Shown in pieces: positions 1 to 13,929 of a stretch of DNA of 64,000 nt. Position numbers and translations under genes: made by a program. The notes below the pieces were generated by a model. That model had not been told where the DNA came from, searched no databases, and worked only from the letters and a program-made list of their open reading frames with translations. This DNA is from Candidatus Bathyarchaeia archaeon (GTDB taxonomy: Archaea; Thermoproteota; Bathyarchaeia; 40CM-2-53-6), in the NCBI GenBank assembly GCA_050013255.1, contig JBEKFP010000001.1, positions 32,001-96,000 of the forward strand. The letters are read 5' to 3'. The stretch's first letter is position 1; every line of letters starts with the position of its first letter.

Positions 1-18
1 AAACGCCTAGTCAGATAC

Positions 19-627
19 ATGATTAACCTCGCTCTCTTCGCCCTCCTATTCTTCCTGATAACATGGTACGGATCATTGTACGCAAACTACTTGCCTTCCT
101 TCGTGACCTCGACAAGCTGGGGCTGGCTCCTCGTCAGCCTCCTAGGGGCCGTTGGATTAGGGCTTCTGATCTACAAGGCGAAGGGGGCACTGCATTTGCT
201 TGGCATAGTTCTGATCGGCGGACTCACTGGGACATTTCTCGGCGTGTCCATACCCACATTAACGGCGGTCGTGCTCTTGCTAGCCTTAGCGGGCTATGAC
301 CTCTTCGCAGTCTACAAGGGCCCAATAGGGAAGATGGCTGAATCAACCAACCTCGAAGAATTCACGGGCGCCGTTTTTACGTACGGTGATTTGACGGTGG
401 GGATGGGGGATATGGTGTTCTACTCTATGCTCGCGAGCAACTCAATGATGAATTTTGGGCCGATCCCATTCCTCGCCGCGGCTGTTGGTTTGGTAATTGG
501 TGCTTACCTTGGGTTCAAGATGCTTGAAGGGCGGGACATGTTTCCAGGCCTGCCGTTCGCCATAATTCTCGGATTAGTGTTCATGTATGTTGCTTCACAA
601 ATCTTGATCATGCTAAAACCAACCTGA
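19..627 (+). CDS. Presenilin/GxGD-family intramembrane aspartyl protease (probably 5'-truncated by window edge)
   Basis: Multi-TM protein with YD (AGYDLFAV), GxGD (GMGDMVFY) and PAL-like (FPGLP) motifs. Confidence 0.85.
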   Translation: MINLALFALLFFLITWYGSLYANYLPSFVTSTSWGWLLVSLLGAVGLGLLIYKAKGALHLLGIVLIGGLTGTFLGVSIPTLTAVVLLLALAGYDLFAVYKGPIGKMAESTNLEEFTGAVFTYGDLTVGMGDMVFYSMLASNSMMNFGPIPFLAAAVGLVIGAYLGFKMLEGRDMFPGLPFAIILGLVFMYVASQILIMLKPT

Positions 628-986
628 GCGAACACATTCTCCATTACCAGTAGGAATGGGTTACATATTCTCGTTGCAGAGGAAAAGCAACACGATTTAA
701 GCCAAGGTCAGGTCGGAAATCGGAGCTTCCTCCCACCAAATCGGCCCAAAAGAGGGTTCTGTTGGGTTCTAGGGGCTTAGGCTAGGGTGGATAGGTTAGG
801 GTGGTGCCACCCTTCGAGGGGTGGTGCCAAACGGTGCCAAGCGAAGGTAAATCAACCTCTCTTGACCCCAAAAAATGCACCACCCCCCTGGGGGGTCCCT
901 CCAAGCGTGCGCGCACTCTTCTCCGCCTACTATCCCATAAAACTACACCACCCACCCCCCCGCCGCCAAAAACCCGCATTATTGGC

Positions 987-1244
987 CTATCTTCCGGCCT
1001 TGATCTTTTGCCTGAGCTTAATATTCGCAAGCCTGTCCCAGTTTCGAACAATTCGGGGAATATCGTACCCGCATACCTCAACTATGCCTGGGTAAGGGTC
1101 GGTAGTTGGGGCCGTTCTGATTCCAAGGAATTTGGAACAAACAAAGAAGAAGTACGCCCTGCTCTTCGTTGTTACCGCGAATAGAATTCCCGTCCTTTCA
1201 ATGAGCAGTTTGAGCATTGTTCGCTCGTAGATCAGCTTCCTCAT
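987..1244 (-). CDS. Small hypothetical protein (85 aa), last gene of the glycosylation operon
   Basis: ATG (MRKLIYER...) overlaps the TGA of the upstream GT gene as ATGA, typical of translational coupling; no recognisable motif. Confidence 0.5.
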   Translation of the reverse strand: MRKLIYERTMLKLLIERTGILFAVTTKSRAYFFFVCSKFLGIRTAPTTDPYPGIVEVCGYDIPRIVRNWDRLANIKLRQKIKAGR

Positions 1245-1999
1245 CCTTCGCCACTCACGCCTCTTTTCATTCGAAGCCAAGGCTCAGGTTTCACGAAACC
1301 GTATAGAAATTTCAGGTAGAACACTGGTACGTATAGGATGTTCTTCACGTTCCTACTGTTGAGGCTTAGCAGTAGGATCACTTTGAGGGCAAACAAGAGT
1401 TCTCTAGGCTTCGAGTCAGGTAGCACCCTCGTGTTCGCTCCTTCCCACTCGGGTTTGAATTCTCTAAATTGCGAACGATGAACCATCGAATCAAGAACGT
1501 AGTACGTTTTGAGTTTCTGCTCGTCGAGGCGCCTTTGAATGAAATAAGTCTCCCGAGCATCGATATAATCCGGCACAACCTTACCCAAGAAATTGTTCCT
1601 ACGCAGGACAAGTAGACTTGCAGGTAGTCCATACCGAAAACGGTGCCCCATAGCCATCCCCACTACCGCACCATACCCCCTATCCCGAAGGATACTCAGC
1701 GCCAGATCAAAGAAATCGGCTCTCACAATCTCGACGTCACTGTCAACGAAAACGATGTATTCGGTGGTCGCTAATTCAAAACAAAGCTGTCTTGCTCGCC
1801 CCAACCCCTCTCGCTCGGAAAATATCTCCGCATTGAATCTTCTTGCGATCTGAATTGTTCCATCGTCGCTATGGTGATCGACAACTAGGAGCCGTGAATC
1901 AGGAGTGAGCCTTCTGATACTTCCTAGACATTGTTCCAGCGTCTTTGCTGAATTGTAGCTGCAGACACAGAAAGTGAGTCCTTTCACCTCCTTCAACAT
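1241..1999 (-). CDS. Glycosyltransferase family 2
   Basis: GT-A N-terminus (VCSYNS...LLVVDHHSDDGT, GLGRARQ, FVDSD DxD); start placed at ATG 1999, overlapping the upstream stop. Confidence 0.88.
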   Translation of the reverse strand: MLKEVKGLTFCVCSYNSAKTLEQCLGSIRRLTPDSRLLVVDHHSDDGTIQIARRFNAEIFSEREGLGRARQLCFELATTEYIVFVDSDVEIVRADFFDLALSILRDRGYGAVVGMAMGHRFRYGLPASLLVLRRNNFLGKVVPDYIDARETYFIQRRLDEQKLKTYYVLDSMVHRSQFREFKPEWEGANTRVLPDSKPRELLFALKVILLLSLNSRNVKNILYVPVFYLKFLYGFVKPEPWLRMKRGVSGEG

Positions 2000-3237
2000 G
2001 CCGCTCTCCGCCTGTACACAGCTAGAAAATGGTCGCCCAAACGGTTCATCGGGAATATTGTCCCGAGCTTGAAATCTACTGATTTCCACAACCCAAACAG
2101 CTTTCCAGGTGGCAGAAACTTTGTTAGGTTCGAAGGCGGAAGCGTAATCACAACGCCATAGACTTTCTTCAGCTCGAAATATGGGTCAACGATTTTTCCA
2201 AGTGATGCCACGGAGAACGCGTTTGTTGCAACACAAAACCTAGACTTGCCTACAGGTACGGGGTTGCGTAGCCTCGCGAACGCAAGTCTCGGCTTCAACT
2301 TGAACGTGTAGCCAAGAATCTCGTAGAGGCAGTATTTGTTCCAAACACCGAGAATCAGGGGCGCCTCCTCCTTCAGAATATCGTTGAGAACACGTACCGA
2401 TTGATGCAATCGAGGCTCTGTGTTTATCGCGCCATAGGTCGAATAGGCCCCATCGATTCTTGAGAAGCCAAGGTTCGCTATTTTGTCTTTCAGATCGACT
2501 GGCCTTGACCAGACGCATAACACATTATCCGAGAGCCCTGCCTTTTCCGCCTTTGATTTGAGTACCTCGACCATTTTGCTGGAAATGTCTGTCGCAATTA
2601 CTCTTACCCCGGCCTTTGCAAGGCTCAATGTCTCCGTGCCGGTACCGCATCCAATTTCCAGGACTGTATCCCCCGGTTTGAAGAACTCCATCATAACTGA
2701 GACGGAGACGTTACGGAGCCATGTGTTGATTGGGTTTCCGAATATGTGCCTGTCATAATCCTCTGCGACGGCGTCGAAGGCCGCTTCGAGGTCGCCGTAA
2801 ATTATTTCATCAAAACTAGTGGAGGCCCACTCGTTGACGAAAAGTTCAACGTAACTATGCTGGCCCTTGTAATATTGATTCACAACTGCTTTTCCGTATT
2901 TTCGGGTGAATATTGCAAGTAGCGGGTCGTCAAGTCCCGTTATTTGCTTTATGTGTCCTTCGCAATTGAAGATCCGGTTCTGGAAGAACAGCCTTGCTTT
3001 CACATTCCCTTGCAGATTCAGAAACCAGGCGTGCTTCCCTGACCTTCCTGGAAAAACAATGATCCTAACTCCCACTGAAACATACCTGAGCAGAACCTGA
3101 TGTGGCTTTCCACTCTTGCGACCAATGGTTTCAAGTCGGATGTACTGATTCTGGCCGGGTGAGGAATCTATGCCCGATTTAGATGATATCCACGGTTCCC
3201 GCGTTCTTTGAATTTCGCTTTCTCTAAGCTTCTCCAT
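1993..3237 (-). CDS. Fusion of deazaflavin-dependent nitroreductase-like split-barrel domain and class I SAM methyltransferase
   Basis: N-terminal LETIGRKSGKP...WFLNL (DDN/FDOR-A-like signature); C-terminal VLEIGCGTG...ATDISSKM SAM motifs. Confidence 0.75.
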   Translation of the reverse strand: MEKLRESEIQRTREPWISSKSGIDSSPGQNQYIRLETIGRKSGKPHQVLLRYVSVGVRIIVFPGRSGKHAWFLNLQGNVKARLFFQNRIFNCEGHIKQITGLDDPLLAIFTRKYGKAVVNQYYKGQHSYVELFVNEWASTSFDEIIYGDLEAAFDAVAEDYDRHIFGNPINTWLRNVSVSVMMEFFKPGDTVLEIGCGTGTETLSLAKAGVRVIATDISSKMVEVLKSKAEKAGLSDNVLCVWSRPVDLKDKIANLGFSRIDGAYSTYGAINTEPRLHQSVRVLNDILKEEAPLILGVWNKYCLYEILGYTFKLKPRLAFARLRNPVPVGKSRFCVATNAFSVASLGKIVDPYFELKKVYGVVITLPPSNLTKFLPPGKLFGLWKSVDFKLGTIFPMNRLGDHFLAVYRRRAAC

Positions 3238-3331
3238 CTAGCCCTCGACCTCTGTAACTTTCAGCTCAATTTCCGGCTCAGTTCCCACAGAATGCTAAGT
3301 TCATCACAGCTGATAAGAGATATTGACTTGC

Positions 3332-4288
3332 CTAGGATTTAGTTCCGTACCTCTTCCACAAGGCGTGCTTCCTTGTCGACCCGACATTGTCTAGCATTGC
3401 GAGGAACACCGACACCACTTCACCAATCATTGATACAGGTAAGGCGATAATCAACCTCGGATTGTCTGACAGGGTTCTAATGAGGATTGATAAACTGAGA
3501 ACTGGATTTGAGGCTAGCATTGACTCTAGGGTCTTTGGTGATTTGCCGACCTTTTTCCAAATCTGAAGGTGGCCGTAAACGATTCTGCGACGCTGGCGGA
3601 TGACATCCACGAAGTTCTTAGGAACATCGATCTTGACCTTAGCAGTTTGGCAAAACCCAATTGTGTAGCCGGCGAGGTATGCCGTTCCTGCCAGGTACGC
3701 GCCGTCGTTTACCGTATCCGGTGGCAGTTCATGAAGGGCTTCTCCTCGAAGCACCAAGAGTTCGTCACAGCACCGATTGTTAAGATCGTCGACATTTAGC
3801 TCTCGCAAGAACTCGTTATGTACTCCCCACATCAGTTCCAGCACACTACCGGCGAGCCCCGCTCCACCACTCACGATTGGGAGGCCGGAAACCATCCCTA
3901 TCTTCTCGTCCCGCATTATTTCATTCAGCAACCTAGAAATCGCACCTCTCTCAGGGAGAGCGTCGGAATTTACTAGAACCAAGAACTGGCCGTCGAAATT
4001 CTGAATGATCTGATTTATCGCAACGGATTTTCCCCTCCGTATGGGTTCCTCAATCAGCACGAAACGCCGGTCTCGCCGCGCTAGCTCCCGGGCGAAAAGA
4101 AGCGCGCTGGCGTCACAGCCACTTGCAACCAGAACCACCTTCTTTAGCATTAGGCCAGAGGGGTATGATTCAGTCTCGATGAGATCTAGAAGCCTCTCCA
4201 AATTTGCAGCCGAATCCGCAGCACAGATGCCAATCGAAAAACCCACGTCAAGCCTGATATTTTCAGGTAGCACAACACTCTGGCTCAT
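3332..4288 (-). CDS. Glycosyltransferase family 2 (processive-type motifs)
   Basis: RRGKSVAIN, LVNSDA (DxD-like), VND and RQRRRI (QxxRW-like) motifs; C-terminal hydrophobic segments. Confidence 0.8.
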   Translation of the reverse strand: MSQSVVLPENIRLDVGFSIGICAADSAANLERLLDLIETESYPSGLMLKKVVLVASGCDASALLFARELARRDRRFVLIEEPIRRGKSVAINQIIQNFDGQFLVLVNSDALPERGAISRLLNEIMRDEKIGMVSGLPIVSGGAGLAGSVLELMWGVHNEFLRELNVDDLNNRCCDELLVLRGEALHELPPDTVNDGAYLAGTAYLAGYTIGFCQTAKVKIDVPKNFVDVIRQRRRIVYGHLQIWKKVGKSPKTLESMLASNPVLSLSILIRTLSDNPRLIIALPVSMIGEVVSVFLAMLDNVGSTRKHALWKRYGTKS

Positions 4289-4321
4289 AGCACCAAACCA
4301 AACCGCCTGTCCGAGAACAGG

Positions 4322-5278
4322 TTATTCTTCCCACATCGCGCGGAGCCATTCATAGAAATTTGATGTATAGACACACGAGACTGCGCTTATCTTTGGTTCA
4401 AATACACGGAAGTTTTGCCCCTGCGATTTTAGTCTTAAGTTGGTCAGGTATGCCCTGATGCGTAGATATCGGCTCAGGAAAACGTAAGCCATGGCTTCGG
4501 CCCAGTCTAGTGGGAAAGAAAACCACTTTGACCTGTCCCTGGTCTCTACCCTCCGCTCATCAGTCCCATCCTTCAACTCTATGAGCTTCGCAGCGTAGGG
4601 TACCGAATAGAAAACTCCGACCCAGTCGTTACTTTCTAAAATCTTCTTGTATTGATCCACGCCCGCAACAGGTCTTGCTTTGAGAAGTTCGCGGGCAAAT
4701 AGTGGGTTCCTCCTGTTCATTTGAGATTCATGTTCGAAACCTTCCTCGTCGTGGACGTAGCTCAAACAAAAGGGCGACAGGTGAGGAGGCCGCAGGTCTA
4801 GGAGCTTGTTCAACCTAACAAGGACCAATGTCATGAATGCGCTGAGCCAGAGCCTATTTCGCCTTGTGACGATGAACAGGTCGATGTCATCCCATTTATC
4901 GGCGCTCCCGTACGCTACGCTGCCAGTAACAGCAACGGTTCGAATGAAAGGAACCGCCCGTCTCAAAACTCCAGCAAAGCTTGCCGCAGAACCTAACTTT
5001 GCAGCGGACATCTTCTCCCTTTCCAAGCGGGAGGAGTCTAACTGGTTCGGGTTTGTGAGCAAGTATCCATCTTTGATATAGAAGTGAATATCAGGAAATT
5101 TTGTTCCGGCTAATATAGACCGAAGTTGTTCCGCCGTGAGGTTTCTCCTTGGGAGAAAGTAGTTCGCTACCTCGTCCAATGTGAACGGAAACTTGAGGTA
5201 CTCGGATACTCTGAACACCTTCCACAGCCCATCGTAAATGTCGTCTGCTTGATCTTGCACTGGGAAGGTTTCTTGCAA
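4322..5278 (-). CDS. Nucleotidyltransferase (pol-beta superfamily) domain protein
   Basis: TGSVAYG...DDIDLFIV (GS...DxD) catalytic motif; N-terminal helical region (FPFTLDEV). Confidence 0.75.
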   Translation of the reverse strand: MQETFPVQDQADDIYDGLWKVFRVSEYLKFPFTLDEVANYFLPRRNLTAEQLRSILAGTKFPDIHFYIKDGYLLTNPNQLDSSRLEREKMSAAKLGSAASFAGVLRRAVPFIRTVAVTGSVAYGSADKWDDIDLFIVTRRNRLWLSAFMTLVLVRLNKLLDLRPPHLSPFCLSYVHDEEGFEHESQMNRRNPLFARELLKARPVAGVDQYKKILESNDWVGVFYSVPYAAKLIELKDGTDERRVETRDRSKWFSFPLDWAEAMAYVFLSRYLRIRAYLTNLRLKSQGQNFRVFEPKISAVSCVYTSNFYEWLRAMWEE

Positions 5279-5492
5279 CTTAGTTCATCCTCAAGGAATG
5301 GTTCTTGCCTGCGCTAACTCGGGCGCGTTCGCTTGGCACGATATAAAAGAATTACTACTACAATCGTAGTACCTTGGTTGTTCAATCGCACAAGCGGTGC
5401 TGGCTGATTTTGATTGATGAAAACTCATAGAAATTGATTCTTCCATAGAACAAGAATTATTTCCTCAGAAGACTTTCCGTGTCAGAATCACG

Positions 5493-5642
5493 ATGCCATC
5501 ACTCTCATTAAGAAGACTAGGGGCACTTCTAGGAATAATTGACATACTAGAGCTCGGGATACTACTCACCGACCAGATTTTACGAGGAGCAACTGACCAC
5601 TTCTACGCGCTCATTCTCTTCGTTATCATTGACTTCGTCTGA
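5493..5642 (+). pseudogene. Truncated paralog (49 aa) of the membrane protein at 11935-12429
   Basis: My translation MPSLSLRRLGALLGIIDILELGILLTDQILRGATDHFYALILFVIIDFV* aligns with GALLILSAILGIALLALDNVLRTFATLHYYALLAFVVVDIAV; absent from the ORF track. Confidence 0.65.
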
Positions 5643-5851
5643 CTATCCGACTGCTTGGGCAAACCTCGCATCTTTCTACGTATTTGGTTTACGCGGCTCG
5701 TTATTCACGGAAGGTGACGTATACATGTATGCTGCATGGAACTGATAGTGAAGTAGTCGTATGCCTTGCCTACGTCCTTGCGATGCACTACAATAGGTCG
5801 TTCATTCAGACTATTTCGTGAGGCGATTTAGCAAACATTAAGGCTTTTTCC

Positions 5852-5966
5852 TGTGTGTGCGCGCACACACACTAAAACGACGGTTCAAATTCCGTTGCCC
5901 GCACCATTAGAGCGCACACACACTAAACTACGAACGACGACGATTCAAATTACGACGCCCGCACCA
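5852..5966 (+). repeat. Island repeat site A: 20-bp palindrome followed by two tandem units
   Basis: TGTGTGTGCGCGCACACACA (5852-5871) is a perfect palindrome; two units GCGCACACACACTAAA...ACG(G/A)TTCAAATT...GCCCGCACCA with CGCACCA at 5900 and 5960. Confidence 0.9.
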
Positions 5967-6012
5967 TCGATGGCACCCCCAAAAAAACAATTCAAGCTAC
6001 TATTCCGATTAG

Positions 6013-7086
6013 TTACTCTTTCTCAATATCAGCAGCCAGTTTGCGAGTGCCCTGGGCATACATCTTCAGATTCCTCAATTCCTTCTGAGGATGATCTACG
6101 AGTTTCCATTCCTCACCTTCCCGGATGAACGTCCCTAACGATTGACCTGCAAAACTACGTTCAACAGCATAGATTGTTCCTTCACGGAACGTGGCATTTG
6201 GGAATAATTGTTTCAGAGAGGCCTCAGCAATATGATGTTCCGTACTAATCGGCAGTTCTATGAAAGGGGGTGCAAATCCTGATCCCCGCTTCAAGCCACC
6301 GGCCAACTCTGCCATGCTCGATAAGGAGACGGGAAACTTCGCCAGTTCAGCAGCTACCTCACCAGCTTTAATCACATCCTTAAACTCTGGGCGCATTACG
6401 AGATTCCTAATTGCTCGTTCCAGTCTATGCAGTAGGACCGCTGGATGACGAACAAGACCAAGCCTTCCAGAAGTGCTGACCACCGCGGCGTATTCACTTG
6501 AGTCTATGATTCGCCAGAAGAGATTTCGTATGTCTGCCTTTGAAACTTGACCCACTACCTCACTCTTGAACATGAGCGATGGGTCGTATCGCGAAGTGAT
6601 GAAAACAAGTTCAGCAAATCTATACCGTGCTTCACCACTGAATACACTGGTATCTATTTGCGGTGCAAAACACATTACGTGACCTAGCGAGTCGGATGCT
6701 ATTGCCGCTCCATACTTGCATCCGAGCGCTAGATTGTAGAGCATGTCTGAGGCGAAATTTAGAAAAAGGGCCTCATGCGGCTTGCTTGTTTGGTCTTGCC
6801 ACTTGCTTGCTTGATTGCGAATCGGCAACATGAAGTCGTCCACGCGAGACAGTATTTTTCCGTCTCCATCAACCAGCTTGACTAGGTTGCGCCGCGTAGA
6901 CGGCAGCTGATCCAAAACCTCAGCAACTCTATTCCTTTCCGATGCGCTAGGAACAGGAACTATAATCTGATCGGCTCCCAAGGACGTAAGCACAATCGCG
7001 GTCGCATTTAGCATGGACACTCTTACAGGCTGTCCTGACAGCCTACCCACAGCATCGATGTGTTCAAGAACTATCGGGTTCGGCAA
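6013..7086 (-). CDS. Hypothetical protein, paralog of 9071-10153
   Basis: 357-aa ORF with long shared blocks (LTSLGADQI, DGKILSRV, LYNLALGCKYGA, GEARYR, FAPPFIE). Confidence 0.85.
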   Translation of the reverse strand: MPNPIVLEHIDAVGRLSGQPVRVSMLNATAIVLTSLGADQIIVPVPSASERNRVAEVLDQLPSTRRNLVKLVDGDGKILSRVDDFMLPIRNQASKWQDQTSKPHEALFLNFASDMLYNLALGCKYGAAIASDSLGHVMCFAPQIDTSVFSGEARYRFAELVFITSRYDPSLMFKSEVVGQVSKADIRNLFWRIIDSSEYAAVVSTSGRLGLVRHPAVLLHRLERAIRNLVMRPEFKDVIKAGEVAAELAKFPVSLSSMAELAGGLKRGSGFAPPFIELPISTEHHIAEASLKQLFPNATFREGTIYAVERSFAGQSLGTFIREGEEWKLVDHPQKELRNLKMYAQGTRKLAADIEKE

Positions 7087-7191
7087 CTGAACAGGCTCCG
7101 GTTGTCCACAGAGATTTAGTCATCCGAGATTTCAATGAATCGAAATCGGAAGTCTATCGGCGTTGTGAGGTCACTCTAGTCCACGAAGCTT

Positions 7192-7232
7192 TGTGTGGGT
7201 CTAATGGTGCGCACACACACACTTTGAAACGG
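7192..7232 (-). repeat. Island repeat site B (inverted orientation)
   Basis: 7200-7224 is the exact 25-bp reverse complement of 10237-10261; the minus strand reads CCGTTTCAAAGTGTGTGTGTGCGCACCATTAGACCCACACA. Confidence 0.9.
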
Positions 7233-7247
7233 TTGGTGTAGGTGTTT

Positions 7248-7275
7248 GTTGTTAGGGGAGGTGTCCCCTAACAAC
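7248..7275. repeat. Perfect 12-bp inverted repeat (hairpin)
   Basis: GTTGTTAGGGGA-GGTG-TCCCCTAACAAC; a second imperfect GC-rich stem follows at ~7282-7333. Confidence 0.85.
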
Positions 7276-7428
7276 CCCTCCCGGCCCGGTTCCGGGAATC
7301 TGACTACCTAGCATCACTCCCCGGACCCGGCCGCATGTGTCGTTTGAGTGAAATCCGGCCCGGAATCAGACTTTGCGGACTAATGGAACCAACAGGTCGG
7401 AAGAATCAGGAGTTCGAGACTTACGATC

Positions 7429-7980
7429 TTAATTCAATACTTCCCATGCAAACACTCTGACCGCTTGATGAACTGGATGATCTAGCCTTCTGTAGTTCTC
7501 CACCCTCTTCGAAAGTTTGACTCCAATCACTTTTTCACAAATTACCTCGAAGGAATCTATCAACGGGGTGAGGCTGATCTTGGGAGGGGCATGCTCGTAC
7601 CCAATGACTGCGACAGATTTGCGCTCGGAACCTTGAAGCTGCATCAACTTGAGGCAGTCACCTATGCTACTAACGTTTCCCGGATAAGGATGTAGGAGAT
7701 TGACGGACCAGTCTTCTGCTTCCTTCCCGTTGTCTCCGAATGGGCGAACAATCTTGAACTCAACAGCCCAGTCATCTGGGATGAGTAGATCGGGAGTTCT
7801 CTTTGTGACAGCGTTAGCCTTGTACTCTGGAAGATGATTCAGATGAGCAACGATAAGCTTGAGCAGCTGAGGTTCACCGTAGGGTCCCACGCCGGGTTTG
7901 AAAGAACGGAAAGGAATCCGTGACGCATCAACCTCGACGATGGCGTCAGTCACATCGTTCATGAGGTCATAGATATCCAT
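7429..7980 (-). CDS. Putative PD-(D/E)xK restriction-endonuclease-like protein
   Basis: E(PQL)...TPDLLIPDDWAVEFK matches the E...PD...ExK catalytic pattern. Confidence 0.6.
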   Translation of the reverse strand: MDIYDLMNDVTDAIVEVDASRIPFRSFKPGVGPYGEPQLLKLIVAHLNHLPEYKANAVTKRTPDLLIPDDWAVEFKIVRPFGDNGKEAEDWSVNLLHPYPGNVSSIGDCLKLMQLQGSERKSVAVIGYEHAPPKISLTPLIDSFEVICEKVIGVKLSKRVENYRRLDHPVHQAVRVFAWEVLN

Positions 7981-8031
7981 GTACCGGGAATTAGACGGAG
8001 GATTCGTATTAGAGATTTGTTAGCTTGTATC

Positions 8032-8132
8032 TGTGCGCATCTTTAGTACTCTACACACGAGAACTGCGGTTCAAATTTCGTTGCCCGCACCAGCAATACC
8101 ACACACACTTAACGAGGAACAACGGTTCAAAT
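8032..8132 (+). repeat. Island repeat site C
   Basis: CGGTTCAAATTTCGTTGCCCGCACCA (8067-8092) is 25/26 identical to 5881-5906, followed by CCACACACACT...ACGGTTCAAAT (8099-8132). Confidence 0.9.
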
Positions 8133-8175
8133 CGTCGATTTTTTATCCAGTGTTCCACCTCTCTATCCGAGACCC

Positions 8176-8973
8176 TTGCACCCGGCTCACGAAATCCCGC
8201 AACATGGCAACCTCGTTCCGGCCTATTCGCGCTTTATCTTGCTTACCTACCTCAACCAAGTCGCTCAAACCATCTCAGCCAAGTTAACACTCGACCATAC
8301 TAGAGATGAAAGAGGACTGACGGACGATCTCATCGAAGAGCTAGTTCGATGGGATCAAACAACCCTGCCAGAATCATTGCACTATGAGGGATGGAGACTT
8401 GAGTTGCGAATGAGTAAAGTCACACAGAAGTTAGAGAGTCAATTAGGAGCAGATCTCGGCCTTATCACAACCCTTAGCACACGTATGTGTCGCGTCGAAA
8501 AGGCTCTACTTTTCCAATGCAAGCGCCTTCACCCTACAGGACAATCTGAATTCACCCCTGAATCTTGCTACGGAGACCTTATGGAAGAACATGGTCGAAA
8601 GCAGGCGACAGATATGCTTGCTCATACACCCGCGAGTTTCTTCTTATTGTTTAACCCAAGAATCTCTCACGTGCACAATGATTTGGAACTAATCAATAGC
8701 AAGCCATTGAGAGAAGATCATGGAGTCAGTCTGCACGCCGGATTCCAAGATATTCTCATATTGCCTGCTACCACGCGCATTGGAATGCATAGCACGGGAG
8801 GCCTCGAAGATTTGTTTCCATATACAACATGCTTCTCTCAATTCATCGTTCAGGACGTCTTCCAATGTAACGTAGGTGATGCGTCCGCGTTGGCGCTGGC
8901 CACTGCTAGAAACAAGAACGAGGAATTTCGTGTCCGGATTTCTCTCGAAATGGACCTGCTCTTTGAAGACTAG
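8176..8973 (+). CDS. Putative PD-(D/E/Q)xK nuclease-fold protein
   Basis: ESQLGADLGL...ALLFQCKRL matches the E..GAD...QxK variant; start codon uncertain. Confidence 0.55.
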   Translation: MHPAHEIPQHGNLVPAYSRFILLTYLNQVAQTISAKLTLDHTRDERGLTDDLIEELVRWDQTTLPESLHYEGWRLELRMSKVTQKLESQLGADLGLITTLSTRMCRVEKALLFQCKRLHPTGQSEFTPESCYGDLMEEHGRKQATDMLAHTPASFFLLFNPRISHVHNDLELINSKPLREDHGVSLHAGFQDILILPATTRIGMHSTGGLEDLFPYTTCFSQFIVQDVFQCNVGDASALALATARNKNEEFRVRISLEMDLLFED

Positions 8974-8997
8974 ATTTGATTTGACGTCAGGCATTTT

Positions 8998-9034
8998 CTG
9001 GGGGGGTGGGTCAGCTGGTGCGCACACACACAAA
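8998..9034 (-). repeat. Island repeat site D (inverted orientation)
   Basis: Minus strand reads TTTGTGTGTGTGCGCACCAGCTGACCCACCCCCCCAG; core TGGTGCGCACACACACA at 9016-9032. Confidence 0.8.
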
Positions 9035-9070
9035 GCGAGGGACTTGGTCAACGTGGCCGCGGATTTTTTC

Positions 9071-10153
9071 CTACTTTCGATATCCTCGCACGATATTGGT
9101 AGCAGCTATTCGTGAGCGATCCGCGGACCTACGGAGGTGTTCTAGAGTTTCTTGTGGACGATAAGAAAGCTTCGCCTCTTCACCATCATTCAACCACTCA
9201 AGATATGATGCATTATTGAGGGTCGCTTCAGTGGCATAGATAGCTCCTTTTGGAGGGACTGCATCAGGAAATGATTCCGCGAGAGAAGCCATAGCAATCT
9301 GATAATCCGTAGTGATAGGAATTTCGATGAATGGAGGAGCAAATCTGTTTCCTCGTTTCAATCCGTCAACAGCTAACTCTGCCACCTTGGATAGTGGAAC
9401 CGGAAGATTGGCCAGTTCCGCTGCAGTCTCAGCGGCTCTAATTGCCAGTTTGAAATCTTCACGTTTCACAAGGCTTTCAATCGCTCTTTCCATCCTGCGC
9501 AATAACACGTCCGGTTTGCGAACTAAGCCCAGTTTTCCCGAGAGATTAACTACGGTTGAATATTCGCTCGACTCTATGATTTTCCAAAACAGACCGCGTA
9601 TGTTTGCCTCAGAAACTTGTCCAACCACCTCAGTCCCTCCAACAAGAGATGGGTTGTATCTTGATGCAATGAGTGCCAATTCAGCCAATCTGTATCGTGC
9701 CTCACCATGAAACAATCCTGGATCGATTATTGGGATGAACTCCATCATATGGGTCAAGTCATAGCATGCGACAGAGGCTCCGTATTTGCAGCCAAGAGCA
9801 AGGTTGTACAAGGCGTTTAGCGCAAAAGTCACAAAAGTGTCTTCTGGCCACTTCGATGCCTGTTTCCCAATTGGCATTAGGTAATCGCGAACGCGGGACA
9901 GTATTTTTCCATCCTCATCGATCAGTCTTATTCGATTTCGACGAGTGGTTGGTACTTGCTGCAGGGCCTCAGCAACCCTTTCTCTTTCATTTGACCCTGG
10001 AACAGGAACGAGAATCTGATCTGCTCCCAATGATGTAAGTAGGATCGCAGACGAATTGAGGGTGGACGCTTTTACAGGTTTGCCTCCCAATTCTCCCAGA
10101 ACGTCTTTGTGTTCAAGAACTACCGGATTTTCCAACTCCCACGCCCCTCGCAC
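9071..10153 (-). CDS. Hypothetical protein, paralog of 6013-7086
   Basis: 360-aa ORF, colinear with the 357-aa protein and roughly half identical by eye. Confidence 0.85.
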   Translation of the reverse strand: MRGAWELENPVVLEHKDVLGELGGKPVKASTLNSSAILLTSLGADQILVPVPGSNERERVAEALQQVPTTRRNRIRLIDEDGKILSRVRDYLMPIGKQASKWPEDTFVTFALNALYNLALGCKYGASVACYDLTHMMEFIPIIDPGLFHGEARYRLAELALIASRYNPSLVGGTEVVGQVSEANIRGLFWKIIESSEYSTVVNLSGKLGLVRKPDVLLRRMERAIESLVKREDFKLAIRAAETAAELANLPVPLSKVAELAVDGLKRGNRFAPPFIEIPITTDYQIAMASLAESFPDAVPPKGAIYATEATLNNASYLEWLNDGEEAKLSYRPQETLEHLRRSADRSRIAATNIVRGYRK

Positions 10154-10218
10154 TACCCGATATCAAGCTAGGCTCTACTCGTTCTCCTCTGAATAGAGAT
10201 TTCCATTCAGCTCAAATC

Positions 10219-10322
10219 TTGAATCGTCGTCCGTCTAAGTGTGTGTGTGCGCACCATTAGAGCCACACACACAAAATAACGCCTGAACTGACGGTTCAAA
10301 TCACTATCAGTACCACACACAC
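10219..10322 (+). repeat. Island repeat site E
   Basis: AAGTGTGTGTGTGCGCACCATTAGAGCCACACACACA...ACGGTTCAAAT (10291-10301)...CCACACACAC; 10219-10231 is the reverse complement of GACGACGATTCAA in site A. Confidence 0.9.
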
Positions 10323-10459
10323 GAAACGCGCACCTCTTTTGATTGGGAATCAATCATAGGGCTGAAGATTTCGCACTGGTGGTTTGTTTATTCACAGTTG
10401 AGAATTGTTCATCGCGAAATCCGGCTTCGACAAGCCCTCCTGTCGTCGGGGACGTTAGG

Positions 10460-11896
10460 CTATAATCGATCAAGAACTGGGTGGTGCAGCCCCTCGTGAA
10501 GCGTCTTCTCCCAGAATCTTGCACCCCGTAGCATCTGCCAAAGGGCTCTGAGAACCGGTAGACCCCAGAGAATCCAATAGAACATTATCGTGGAAACTGC
10601 GAGTCCGTAGTAATGTACTTTCTCCGTTATTCCATTGACCGTTTTGCCAACCGTTGCGGCAATTCCCCGAACTGTCAGTAAGATGTGCCACAATAATAGA
10701 AGCATGTTGAAAGTGCTGAGGGTGGCAAGCCACGGGTTGTCCACAACGGGGAGGAGTGAAGTTGGCAGCGAAATTCCTGAGGCTAACTGAATTGGCAAAA
10801 GAATAGCGACCAGCAAAGATAGCACCATCAATGGGTAGCCTATTATTGAGAGAAAAGGAACGAAGAAACCGAGCAGATAGTAGAACATAAGAAAACCGAT
10901 TCCAAACCGCCGTCTAAGTGGGAAATCTCTCCAGTACTTTCCTAGTCGCCCCACGGTGTAGAGAGTGCCCCGTATCCAGCGCGTTCGCTGATTAGCCCAT
11001 CCACCTTCGTTCCGTGTCCTCAGCAGCGTCCTAGGTGCCTCTTCATAGGTATCCACGTCGATAATGCCAACCCGATAGCCGTATCCGTAGAGTCGAAGCC
11101 CAAGCTCCAAATCCTCCGTAACGTTCGTTGGGTCCCACCCTCCAAGGGAATTCAAGACATCACGGCGGATGTAGTAGCAGGTTCCCCCAAGAGCCACTGG
11201 AAGACCTCTCATCCGAACCTTTGGAAGAAGCCATGCAAACCAAAATGCATAGTCCCCGACGGACTGAAGCGACAACCAACTGTCCCTGTAATTGATGAAC
11301 CTAAGCCTTCCTTGGACAGCGTCGAACCCATTAACTTGCAGACACTGAGCTGCCTTTCGAAAAACCAAAGGATCACCTTGCACATCCTCAGCATCAACCA
11401 CTGTCACTATCTCGCCTGTGGCCATTGGCAATGCGTAAGTGAGGGCTCGCGGCTTCGAATCAGGCAACTGCTCCGCGTCAATATCAGCCCATTTGGCTCC
11501 TCGTTGTCTGACTTGGGAGATAAGTAGGTTCCATGATGGATCGCTATTGTTTGGAACCACAAGATGGGTCACGCCTAATTCTCGCGACATCCGGTCCGCT
11601 ATTACGCCTGTGTTCATGTCATCAGAATCCGTAACTAGCAATATCTCCTTCTTTTCGACGGGATAATCCAGAGAGGTGAGTGAGAGAAGACTGCGCCTAA
11701 GGACCGATTCTGGCTCATTCCTTGCTGCAAGAATAGCAGTTATTCTTGGCAGGTCCGCCGACCCGTCCGGAAGAGGATTCGCTGCGTCAACGAAAAGTCG
11801 TTCACGGCCTGAACACCCTAAGAAGAAGATCTTGGCGTTCCAAACCAAATAGAGAATCTGTGTTACAACTATGAAAAGGAGTACGTCAGCAGGCAC
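10460..11896 (-). CDS. Processive GT2 glycosyltransferase (cellulose-synthase-like)
   Basis: KPRAL, VVDAED, TEDL and QRTRW (D,D,D,QxxRW) motifs; C-terminal TM helices. Confidence 0.9.
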   Translation of the reverse strand: MPADVLLFIVVTQILYLVWNAKIFFLGCSGRERLFVDAANPLPDGSADLPRITAILAARNEPESVLRRSLLSLTSLDYPVEKKEILLVTDSDDMNTGVIADRMSRELGVTHLVVPNNSDPSWNLLISQVRQRGAKWADIDAEQLPDSKPRALTYALPMATGEIVTVVDAEDVQGDPLVFRKAAQCLQVNGFDAVQGRLRFINYRDSWLSLQSVGDYAFWFAWLLPKVRMRGLPVALGGTCYYIRRDVLNSLGGWDPTNVTEDLELGLRLYGYGYRVGIIDVDTYEEAPRTLLRTRNEGGWANQRTRWIRGTLYTVGRLGKYWRDFPLRRRFGIGFLMFYYLLGFFVPFLSIIGYPLMVLSLLVAILLPIQLASGISLPTSLLPVVDNPWLATLSTFNMLLLLWHILLTVRGIAATVGKTVNGITEKVHYYGLAVSTIMFYWILWGLPVLRALWQMLRGARFWEKTLHEGLHHPVLDRL

Positions 11897-11934
11897 CTAG
11901 GAACAGCTCAACAGAGAATGATCTCAGATTGGTG

Positions 11935-12429
11935 TCATTTTGCTTTGGGGGAGAAGGGATGGCCGAGCTTCCACGCGATGGCTATGACTGCGAGCTCTAG
12001 TATGAGAGTAAGGTCAATAAGTAGCCCTGGGACCCCGGGAGGGTTTCCGAAACTGACGGACAGGCTGCTAGCGGGGTTAAACAGATAGTCGGCAAACTGC
12101 CCATAGCTTGAGAATCGATAAACTGAGGCTTGCGAGACGTCAGCAAATTGCAAAATGACCCTGAGTACGCACCATATGATCGCAATCGAGAAAACCATCT
12201 TCACCGGTCTAGCAAGAACATAGATCCCAACCGCGATGTCAACAACTACGAATGCTAACAGCGCATAGTAGTGTAGGGTCGCAAAAGTTCGCAGAACATT
12301 ATCAAGAGCCAATAGTGCAATTCCCAAGATGGCGCTAAGGATGAGCAACGCCCCACATGCTTTCGAAGCCCTGGGGCCTTGAGGAACTGACAATTCAACC
12401 CACTTTAGCAAGGAAAGCGGGGGCGTCAT
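11935..12429 (-). CDS. Hypothetical membrane protein (about 4 TM)
   Basis: 164-aa hydrophobic ORF directly upstream of the GT2 gene. Confidence 0.75.
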   Translation of the reverse strand: MTPPLSLLKWVELSVPQGPRASKACGALLILSAILGIALLALDNVLRTFATLHYYALLAFVVVDIAVGIYVLARPVKMVFSIAIIWCVLRVILQFADVSQASVYRFSSYGQFADYLFNPASSLSVSFGNPPGVPGLLIDLTLILELAVIAIAWKLGHPFSPKAK

Positions 12430-12507
12430 ATATATTTATTACTACGCTTGTAGTAGCTTTAATGCATAGCATAGTTTATGAAGTGGAAAGTGTGTTGTGG
12501 CAAAATC

Positions 12508-12885
12508 ATGACAGATTCTGAGTTCCTCAAGGCCTTGACATCAACTGAAGCGATAGACCTTACGGTTAAGGATCAGAAAACTGGACGAAGCAGCTCGAGA
12601 CCAGTTTGGTTTGTCATGGAAAGCGAAAAGCTGTATCTTCTCCCAATGACAGGGTCCGACTCAGAATGGTATAAGAATATACTCGTCAACGCTGAAGTGC
12701 AAATCTCTGCCAGGAGTCCATTAAGAGTGTTAGGGATGAAGGGCAGAAAACTAACCGCGAACACCAAACCGATACAAGCCTCAGAAGTAGCGGACGTGGT
12801 TCAGAAGTTCAAATCGAAATATGGAGCAGCAGAAATTAGCAAGACTTACTCCAAACTTGATGCAGCTGTGCAGGTTCTGATCTAG
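12508..12885 (+). CDS. Deazaflavin-dependent nitroreductase-like / split-barrel protein
   Basis: LTVKDQKTGRSSSRPVWFV...SEWYKNI pattern; alternative start at 12478. Confidence 0.7.
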   Translation: MTDSEFLKALTSTEAIDLTVKDQKTGRSSSRPVWFVMESEKLYLLPMTGSDSEWYKNILVNAEVQISARSPLRVLGMKGRKLTANTKPIQASEVADVVQKFKSKYGAAEISKTYSKLDAAVQVLI

Positions 12886-13067
12886 ACGCATACGAAATAA
12901 AAGTCGTCATCCGGTACATAACTCCGAGTTCCCCATGCTGGGGAGTGACAATATTCGAAGCCAAGAGTGAGGAAGCAGTGTTCAACGCACAACTTCTTTT
13001 GGGCACTGAGGGTCAACCGGTCTCGTTGATCGATGGAGGAGACGTCTGTGTATTGGCGCTGAGAAGC

Positions 13068-13247
13068 TTACTTGCTCTTCATGAGGTCGTAGTCGAGACC
13101 TATCCATATCACGCTGGCCACCCCGATAATTACGCCTGCAGCCAGCCATGGCAGGTACGTATAGCTAGTCCAAGTCCACCATAAATCTGCAATGATAATT
13201 ATGATTCCCATCAAGATTGCAAGGTAGGACTTCGCATTAGTAGTCAT
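13068..13247 (-). CDS. Small 2-TM membrane protein (59 aa), missed by the ORF track
   Basis: MTTNAKSYLAILMGIIIIIADLWWTWTSYTYLPWLAAGVIIGVASVIWIGLDYDLMKSK; two clear hydrophobic helices and a basic tail. Confidence 0.6.
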   Translation of the reverse strand: MTTNAKSYLAILMGIIIIIADLWWTWTSYTYLPWLAAGVIIGVASVIWIGLDYDLMKSK

Positions 13248-13929
13248 TCAAAATCCAACAAGTGTGTTTGCTTGATCATCGGCTAAAAAATCTTTGGTTA
13301 AGTTGTCCAGACGATCTTGTTTGCAGTTCAAGTCGACAATCCGTTGGCAATCCGATTTTGGAGACGCATACGATGCAGAATCGGAAATAGTCAGGTTCCT
13401 CGGCCAGAAGGAACTGAAGTCTACTGTCTTTAGAAAGATACCTAGTCTGTCACCATCGAATGCCCGTGCACTGTCGGACTCGCCCAAGGTTACTGGTTCG
13501 ATTCCTCGCATGTATAAATACCATCTGTAAAATTCTCTTTGCAGAAGGACAGATTCCAGCTACACGAATGGGCCATGACTGGCTAAGTCTACCGATTGCT
13601 TGTTCATTTTCGCATGCCCCAAAGAGTTCTACTCCGCGTTCCACAGATAATAGACTTTTCAAACAAAATCCCTCCAGCATAATGTAAAGGAAAGTGGGAC
13701 TCTACTTACTACATACGTGCGCGGTAGCTTTCTGCTCGTTGCAATATGCGATTGAGGTTTGCACTCTAACGGAGAGTAGTTAAGGTGGTTTTCGTAGGTA
13801 TTGGTGCGCGGCATGACGTGGATTGACCTGCACCGAGGCGCCTCACGCCAGATGAGGAGATGCATCTCCGCTGACCGCAATAACCCTTATAGTGAATAGG
13901 TGGTTCTTGCCGTCTCGAACGGTGCCCGA

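Follow-up and report, generated by a model that had tools for sequence, protein, structure and literature searches.

What moves in a genomic island whose genes are all separated by copies of one repeat: the single genes, the island as a whole, or nothing at all? The question is raised by a locus in the genome of a Candidatus Bathyarchaeia archaeon (G000; 2.46 Mb in three contigs, C1 to C3), within a stretch of 64,000 nucleotides, C1:32001-96000, that we call the window. Coordinates without a prefix are window positions, and the prefixes C1, C2 and C3 denote the contigs of G000. The island occupies 5914-10249 and carries four genes, g1 to g4, separated by a repeat with the core CGCACCA. The original prediction, made from the sequence alone, held that each gene moves singly between sites of alternating orientation, in the manner of pdif/Xer modules, and that the enzyme is encoded elsewhere. 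We find that the island is indeed a mobile, gene-carrying platform, but that mobility is shown for the 4.3-kb block in its entirety, bounded by a target duplication and by terminal inverted repeats (terminal repeats for short). As explained below, we consider it likely that the island is a non-autonomous, casposon-derived composite element, residing in a leader-anchored array and moved in trans by a casposase.

The boundaries of the island are defined by a perfect 14-bp duplication, CGCACCATTAGAGC, present in the same orientation (plus) at 5900-5913 and 10250-10263. We refer to such a 14-mer, CGCACCA followed by seven nucleotides, as an S site; the TTAGAGC variant found in these two copies occurs at no other of the 89 S sites of the genome. 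The 4,336 bp between them begin with G(CA)4C and finish with (TG)5G. The two ends form an imperfect terminal inverted repeat of about 35 nt that abuts the duplication: the left one (5914-5959, plus strand) consists of a G, a (CA)4C tip, a spacer and a T-arm-like module, and it aligns with the reverse complement of the right one (10215-10249, minus strand), which ends in (TG)5G. The score of this alignment is 20, compared with a 95th percentile of 14 in the background distribution against which it was judged.

The sequence of an empty site, predicted beforehand from the duplication as the pattern TTCCGTTGCC, one 14-mer, AAATAACGCCTGAAC, was used to query a metagenome collection, and three contigs from three samples (L069, L070 and L071) match it. 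They are 99% identical to window positions 1-5927 and 100% identical to 10250-10318, and they contain a single copy of CGCACCATTAGAGC; exactly 5914-10249 is missing, together with one 14-mer. All three contigs end about 136 nt beyond the empty site, and one of them is 312 kb long. Assembly collapse is an unlikely explanation, because the repeat common to both junctions is only 14 nt in length. The empty-site haplotype also has private changes (5784 T>A, 5796 G>A and an extra TG after 5851), which are found again in an independent run, X19, at a depth of 37, the depth of the island being 23-28. More than 20 other metagenome contigs contain the island with the same four-gene order, and this order holds for all contigs that encode identical g1, g4 and GT2 glycosyltransferase proteins, except L050/L054.

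Since presence or absence concerns all four genes at once, as a block of 4,336 bp with a perfect 14-bp duplication, the mobile unit is the whole block, and window 5914-10249 is a single insertion. Its empty landing site in closely related wild strains is a new result. In the comparison across relatives that the original prediction had proposed, the island is missing from a strain of about 99% identity, and g1/g4 and g2 were not found in congeners. A search for excision or inversion junctions had also been proposed. In 23 runs, which provide all of our read-level data in the form of Logan contigs, the read joints at the sites have sides of 20-35 nt, and their depths can be accounted for by repeat copies elsewhere; they therefore show neither excision nor inversion, and the 7192-7222 junction was not encountered in flipped form.

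The repeat family that the original prediction described inside the island is real. CGCACCA lies on the plus strand at 5900, 5960, 8086 and 10250, and its complement TGGTGCG at 7205-7211 and 9016-9022, where the full minus-oriented 14-mers span 7198-7211 and 9009-9022; the orientation of the core does alternate as claimed. The exact 25-bp inverted repeat (7200-7224 versus 10237-10261) and the pair of 25/26 identity (5881-5906 versus 8067-8092) are also where they were reported. The pattern CGCACCA-N7-CACAC, with at most one mismatch, has five matches in the 64-kb window, all of them within the island; among 100 shuffles of the window the mean is 0.28 matches and none reaches five. We find in addition a degenerate sixth S site (8036-8049, plus strand) and a truncated one (10302-10313). 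The repeat had been reported as absent from 14 kb onward, which is true of the window but not of the genome, where a census gives about 89 S sites in at least 15 clusters.

Each site can be decomposed into three modules. The first is S itself, whose seven variable nucleotides are most commonly TTAGACC or GCTGACC. The second is a pair of tips that flank S, with (TG)n on the left side and (CA)n on the right. The third is a leader that resembles the 3' end of a tRNA, which we call T: it has the form GGTTCAAAT-N9 and ends in ...GCC. T is in register with tRNA positions ~52-72, and T followed by CGCACCA is in exact register with positions ~52-76; the genuine tRNAs of G000 end in GGTTCAAATCCCGGCGGCCGCA-CCA, and directly after the 14-mer of one of them there is a tip-like remnant. 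Scans for tRNAs and for Rfam families called no tRNA gene and no Rfam family in the window. S sites about 60 nt apart enclose gene-less mini-modules of about 46 nt, and the commonest neighbour of S sites in G000 is a 22-member family of KaiC-like ATPases.

So many sites might suggest that the repeat is a structural or regulatory intergenic element, like the repetitive extragenic palindromes (REP) or miniature inverted-repeat transposable elements (MITE), and that it does not move the genes between its copies. The sites are intergenic throughout the genome, some of their neighbours look ordinary (KaiC-like ATPases, TauE, a solute-binding protein), and a junction of the form tip-S-tip is able to form a hairpin. 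Such genome-wide scatter had been named beforehand as the observation that would speak for a repeat of this kind. The scatter is literally there, and yet the mobility of the island stands, because an empty site exists: the block, present or absent with its perfect duplication, is a moving unit with four genes. In addition, two further elements of G000 described below bear the same hallmarks, homologs in other genomes have the same ends, and the cargo belongs to rare families, of which g1/g4 and g2 were searched for in congeners and not found. We therefore think the REP/MITE explanation improbable.

Which enzyme, then, moves the island? As predicted, none is encoded nearby: we found neither a recombinase gene nor a Cas1 gene in the window. 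G000 does contain two Cas1 genes, at C1:1333417-1334640 and C3:231179-232393, both of which lie inside repeat clusters. The closest relative of the former (407 aa) is the casposase of Methanosarcina mazei, PDB 6OPM, with which residues 4-402 align (E = 3.9e-74). This gene belongs to a 16.3-kb element, C1:1330273-1346555 (L072), whose ends are inverted repeats of 130-190 bp starting with (CA)n. On either side of this element stands the commonest S variant, GGTCTAATGGTGCG, as a direct 14-bp duplication, and there is a T module upstream. Its ten largest open reading frames include AIPR, an N6/N4 DNA methylase and a DndB-like protein; a family B DNA polymerase (PolB) was not found among these ten. 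The element also has a HATPase-like gene. The island itself contains a solo copy of the long terminal repeat of this element (7212-7370, plus strand): of the first 60 aligned bases 58 are identical, and similarity is recognisable to about 160 nt. Because the tips, the 14-bp length of the duplication and the CGCACCA core are common to the island and the 16.3-kb Cas1 element, the family-2-type casposase of G000 most likely moves the island in trans.

A smaller element makes the same arrangement easier to see. At C1:1352982-1355396 (L002:8982-11396) there is a clean 2.4-kb element that lacks Cas1 and has one gene, encoding a 697-aa KaiC-TPR protein, between terminal repeats of about 50 bp and a perfect 14-bp duplication, CGCACCAGCTGACC. 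Each of its terminal repeats holds a T-like hairpin and an inner S-like site; as a result, the sites on either side of the cargo are inverted, and those that bound the entire element have the same orientation. This element shows how cargo comes to stand between inverted sites. The left end of the island has the same layout, with an internal S site, CGCACCATCGATGG, at 5960-5973 (plus strand) on the inner edge of the left terminal repeat. More generally, pairs of identical, same-oriented 14-mers, 0.6-16 kb apart in G000, enclose inner sites that differ in sequence and have either orientation. A T-arm-like anchor starts the array in nine of the ten such pairs that abut, and an eleventh pair spans two of them; in two arrays there are three identical S sites in a row.

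The second Cas1 segment, C3:228060-237140, has a different arrangement. It lies between two outward-facing modules of the form GCGGCGGCGGGGGCGG-CGCACCA-N7-(CA)n, and its flanking S sites are inverted rather than same-oriented.

The mechanism that we propose for the island is the following. The target is S, that is, the last seven nucleotides of a tRNA-like 3' end plus seven nucleotides of trailer (5'-CGCA CCA plus 7 nt), with a T-arm-like leader just upstream, and insertion has duplicated this 14-mer. The ends of the element are the (CA)n/(TG)n tips within the inverted repeats of about 35 bp. The inner S sites would either be junctions that date from previous insertions, nested or in tandem, or belong to the ends of elements. 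A composite of this kind could land in either orientation, and its inner sites would have no fixed direction.

The order of sites along the window can be read accordingly as a record of nesting: +5900, +5960, g1, -7198, g2, +8036, +8086, g3, -9009, g4, +10250. We believe that this pattern, + [ + g1 - [ g2 + + g3 ] - g4 ] +, probably represents nested pairs of same-oriented sites rather than designed alternation. The outer pair, 5900/10250, is proven; 7198/9009 would be a possible inner pair, and 8036/8086 the centre. The sites at 7198 and 9009 have the same orientation, and their 27-nt surroundings are 89% identical. The former is a tip-S-tip junction at 7192-7222 (minus strand), made up of TGTGTG, GGTCTAATGGTGCG (S at 7198-7211) and (CA)5C; the latter, at 8999-9032 (minus strand), consists of TGGGGGGGTG, GGTCAGCTGGTGCG (S at 9009-9022) and (CA)5, and the 89% identity, over 27 nt, is to 7195-7221. 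The centre begins with a degenerate junction at 8026-8058 (plus strand; S = CGCATCTTTAGTAC at 8036-8049), which is 73% identical to 10240-10272. It continues at 8059-8132 (plus strand) with a T-arm-like module, S CGCACCAGCAATAC (8086-8099), a (CA)4C tip, a spacer and a second, truncated T-arm-like module.

Several observations weigh against this account. The proposed inner pair agrees at only 11 of 14 positions. None of the four single-gene segments has inverted repeats beyond tips of 5-11 nt, and there are no identical 14-mers among the inner sites, so that the mobility of one gene at a time has no such support. What ties the casposase to the island is a comparison of sequences, and a 14-bp direct repeat with an empty site would be compatible with a site-specific integrase as well. 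Several congeners are rich in junctions and have no detectable Cas1, G011 with 16 junctions being one example; this is expected of non-autonomous elements, but it is also a weakness. Finally, among gene-sized neighbouring sites across the genome there are about 30 inverted pairs and 14 direct ones. This excess counts against composites of random orientation, because random landing does not predict it. One may speculate that excision removes segments flanked by same-oriented sites, and that those flanked by inverted sites stay locked in.

A bolder version of the casposase hypothesis, which we regard as doubtful though worth stating, is that the casposase, besides integrating DNA at S sites, also recombines them. 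The leader-anchored arrays would then be true gene-cassette arrays built by Cas1, in which same-oriented modules are excised and re-inserted and inverted ones are flipped or locked. If this were so, the excess of inverted neighbours would be explained, and the arrays would represent an extant intermediate form that links casposons with gene capture of the integron type and with CRISPR arrays.

The distribution of the repeat among relatives provides a further comparison. We surveyed 59 genomes of the taxonomic family for the junction motif GTGTGCGCACCA-N7-CACAC, with the reversed pattern as a control. The motif occurs in 20 of 22 genomes of one genus (genus g1) and in 8 of 10 of another (genus g15), and Cas1 in 11/22 and 4/10 of them, respectively. 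Within the family these two genera are the only ones with either feature: neither the motif nor Cas1 was found in 26 genomes of three other genera, and the reversed pattern does not occur at all in the 59 genomes. The surveyed genomes are related, however, and this co-distribution amounts to about two lineages versus three.

Since the original prediction appealed to pdif/Xer modules, we must ask whether the genes might instead be exchanged by a tyrosine recombinase, each of them lying between alternately oriented sites. The alternation is real, an empty site with a single 14-bp core would also fit attB, attL and attR, and G000 has three tyrosine recombinase genes. None of the three, however, is in or near a repeat cluster: two are within about 1 kb of ordinary tRNA genes, beside which integrases that target tRNAs are commonly found, and the third lies outside every cluster. 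No serine recombinase above threshold and no HUH Y1 transposase was found in G000. No cluster is adjoined by a gene for a tyrosine, serine or HUH enzyme; it is the two Cas1 genes that lie inside. The sites themselves are an asymmetric 14-bp core between (TG)n and (CA)n tips, which lacks the 11-6-11 two-arm architecture of pdif sites and is too long to be a crossover spacer. In addition, the inverted-repeat ends of the island abut the duplication, and identical 14-mers bracket the whole block rather than single genes. We consider modules of the pdif/Xer type, or of any other tyrosine recombinase, quite improbable.

A related possibility is that the repeats are stacked and rearranged scars, that is, attR-type tRNA 3' fragments left by integrase elements that target tRNAs. 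The exact tRNA 3'-end register of the T-arm-like module and CGCACCA is what one would expect of such scars, and G000 does have integrase-type repeats of tRNA fragments, such as 49 nt of a tRNA 3' end that recur at C1:211590, C1:524981 and C1:1244126. But scars of this kind leave the (CA)n tips and the inverted ends unexplained, the duplicated stretch is exactly 14 bp and not a whole tRNA fragment, and there is no integrase in or beside the clusters; we find this explanation very improbable. That each repeat is half of a tRNA gene, split or permuted, whose (CA)n/(TG)n runs would pair as leaders in trans-splicing, can scarcely be right: nearly all tRNA genes of G000 contain introns, only 19-30 are found and the repeat resembles a tRNA 3' half, but we rejected this candidate on the grounds that the T-stems are unpaired in most of the dozens of copies, no matching 5' halves were seen, the "acceptor" sequences are variable and the block behaves as an insertion.

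We turn now to the cargo. The original prediction described two nuclease-like genes and two paralogs. The paralogs are confirmed: g1 (6013-7086, minus strand, 357 aa) and g4 (9071-10153, minus strand, 360 aa) are 58% identical. The nuclease-like label is plausible for g2 (7429-7980, minus strand, 183 aa) and weak for g3 (8176-8973, plus strand, 265 aa). None of the four proteins has a significant match in Pfam, NCBIfam or PADLOC. A role of the cargo in defence is only a guess.

The g1/g4 family is very rare, with 9 proteins among 5.8 billion, and a search of the genus for these two queries, g1/g4 and g2, found neither in its 22 other species. Homologs of g1/g4 elsewhere also adjoin S sites, and their neighbours include a protein with a TIR domain, a PLD-like protein, an Mrr-like protein and a fragment of a Cas1 gene. 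On its 3' side g4 has GTTGACYAAGTCMCTCGCTT(T)GTGTGTGTG and then S, a flank that is conserved at a homolog in L037. The structure model of g1 is poor (predicted local distance difference test, pLDDT, 52.6) and has no usable match in the ESM Atlas, and we claim no fold for it.

The product of g2 probably has a nuclease fold of the PD-(D/E)xK type. In an alignment of 32 sequences, residues D64, E74 and K76 each reach a conservation of at least 90%, and the structure model has a pLDDT of 94.8. The fold matches are middling and suggestive at most (VIA-align Z 5-6.8: CinB, Hjc, BglII, BamHI and SwaI), and a Foldseek search against the PDB gave nothing at E ≤ 0.001. The closest homologs of g2 are bacterial and occur in housekeeping contexts; because of this, and because none was found in congeners, g2 was probably acquired across domains. 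For g3, which has a possible nuclease-type motif (E87, D93, Q114-x-K116), only seven relatives were found. The closest of these, P0011, is encoded by a lone gene with an S site on each side, adjoining a fragment of a Cas1 gene in L068.

Remnants of other modules lie on both sides of the island. To the left, 5852-5863 comprises the (TG)4 right tip of a remnant, followed by CGCG at the place where a 14-mer is expected; the empty-site strain has (TG)5 here. There follows a mini-module at 5864-5899 (plus strand), with a (CA)4C tip, a spacer and a T-arm/acceptor-like leader in plus orientation directly upstream of the landing site. To the right, the next mini-module (10264-10322, plus strand) consists of a (CA)5 tip, a spacer, a T-arm-like module, the truncated S at 10302-10313 and a (CA)4C tip. 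Its junction is a hot spot in the population, with three haplotypes to the right of 10301-10322: that of the window, that of L069-L071 and that of L050/L054. In the empty-site strain, a different cassette family begins with CACACCTATGAAAAGTCT after 10318, and this family is also present at three S sites of G000 (C1:197649, C1:633266 and C2:746104). The L050/L054 haplotype diverges right after the TTCAAAT at 10301.

On a larger scale, the flanks 3516-5375 and 13674 onward are adjacent in the congeners G014, G018 and G004, so that 5376-13655 (8.3 kb) is extra in G000. This segment contains a small open reading frame, the island, the GT2 glycosyltransferase gene and open reading frames of 164 and 135 aa. 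At its borders we saw neither a duplication nor inverted ends; both adjoin ATATA-rich boxes and then TACTAC...GTAGTA palindromes (5340-5372 and 12430-12460). In two other congeners, G008 and G019, the stretches 5401-5532 and 12459-12949 (89-95% identical) are adjacent, divergent and joined 12459-to-5401. This arrangement implies that 5401-12448 was either inverted or transferred in the lineage of G000. In G008, about 130 nt separate the 5401/12459 pair from the 3' end of a tRNA with an intron; the ortholog of this tRNA in G000 is at C1:211590-211724.

The Rfam model finds 19 tRNAs in G000, and ARAGORN with introns allowed finds about 30. Several of the ARAGORN calls have kilobase "introns" and end in CCCGCACCA; these are probably tRNA 3' fragments and not genes. 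Two same-oriented copies of CCCGCACCA, at C1:206721 and C1:211598 (both on the minus strand), are separated by 4.9 kb and stand at the 3' end of a tRNA. The stretch that they bound looks like an integrated element of the integrase type, one that differs from the family with (CA)n tips.

Casposons are thought to be ancestral to the adaptation machinery of CRISPR. To our knowledge, they have so far been known as large self-replicating elements with their own Cas1 and polymerase. The island is a natural element with neither, and yet it has the signature of a casposon, carries ordinary cargo, and is present or absent among wild strains. One of its cargo genes has its closest relatives in bacteria, and the island suggests that uncultured archaea have a new way of capturing genes. 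With the arrangement leader, repeat, insert, repeat, it becomes directly testable whether CRISPR arrays arose, as proposed, from the duplications and solo ends of casposons. The literature that we searched contains no description of natural, Cas1-less, cargo-carrying casposon derivatives or of arrays of them.

It remains to compare the island with known systems. A pdif site is 28 bp long, with two 11-bp recombinase arms and a 6-bp spacer. Like the pdif modules of Acinetobacter plasmids, the segments here have one or a few genes between alternating sites and an enzyme encoded elsewhere; they differ in the architecture of the sites, in the class of enzyme, in the lack of any associated Xer-type gene, and in having a target duplication and inverted ends. 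An integron has an IntI integrase with attI beside the array, its attC sites all have one orientation, and such arrays have been reported in Archaea too. Integrons likewise consist of promoter-less accessory genes separated by short sites, and their cargo crosses domains, as do the bacterial relatives of g2. The island has no IntI, its orientations are mixed and its target is duplicated on insertion; its sites have neither attC symmetry nor GTTRRRY cores, which agrees with the original view that they are recombination or transposition sites other than attC.

CRISPR arrays share with these arrays the succession of leader, repeat, insert and repeat, apparently built by an integrase of the Cas1 family, and elsewhere in G000 three identical 14-mers follow one leader-like anchor. 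Unlike CRISPR arrays, the inserts are kilobases long, carry genes and have ends of their own, the repeats are 14 bp, and there is no Cas2 or effector context.

The closest comparison is with the casposons. In the sense of Krupovic et al., a casposon encodes its own Cas1 and a family B DNA polymerase, and the island has neither. It does have the marks of casposon-type transposition: a duplication of fixed length that is single-copy at the empty site, and terminal repeats that abut it. Its target is of the family-2 type, a 14-mer starting with CGCA at a tRNA-like 3' end with tRNA-like sequence upstream, and the same genome holds an element with a casposase, the same tips and the same duplication. 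The family-2 casposons of M. mazei have 14-bp duplications that start with an invariant CGCA and overlap the end of a tRNA-Leu gene, require about 30 bp of upstream tRNA for targeted integration, and form tandem arrays with one common duplication, leaving solo terminal repeats (PMC4779613, PMC6977970). S (CGCA-CCA...), the T module, the terminal repeats and the clean single-copy empty site are all like those of, for example, MetMaz1FA1A3-C2; tandem arrays with one duplication and solo terminal repeats are also seen in G000, and the resident Cas1 aligns end to end with the family-2 casposase 6OPM. Unlike the family-2 casposons, the island lacks Cas1 and PolB and carries four unrelated cargo genes, its ends hold a copy of the tRNA-like target, its inner sites partition the cargo, and the resident Cas1 element, too, is without PolB among its ten largest open reading frames. 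According to the NAR 2023 report, in vivo excision of the M. mazei casposon leaves one clean target copy, and a laboratory mini-casposon was both excised and integrated in vivo (PMC10359463). The mini-casposon is likewise a cut-down casposon, but a man-made one with a marker, whereas the elements described here are natural, numerous, nested and carry genes.

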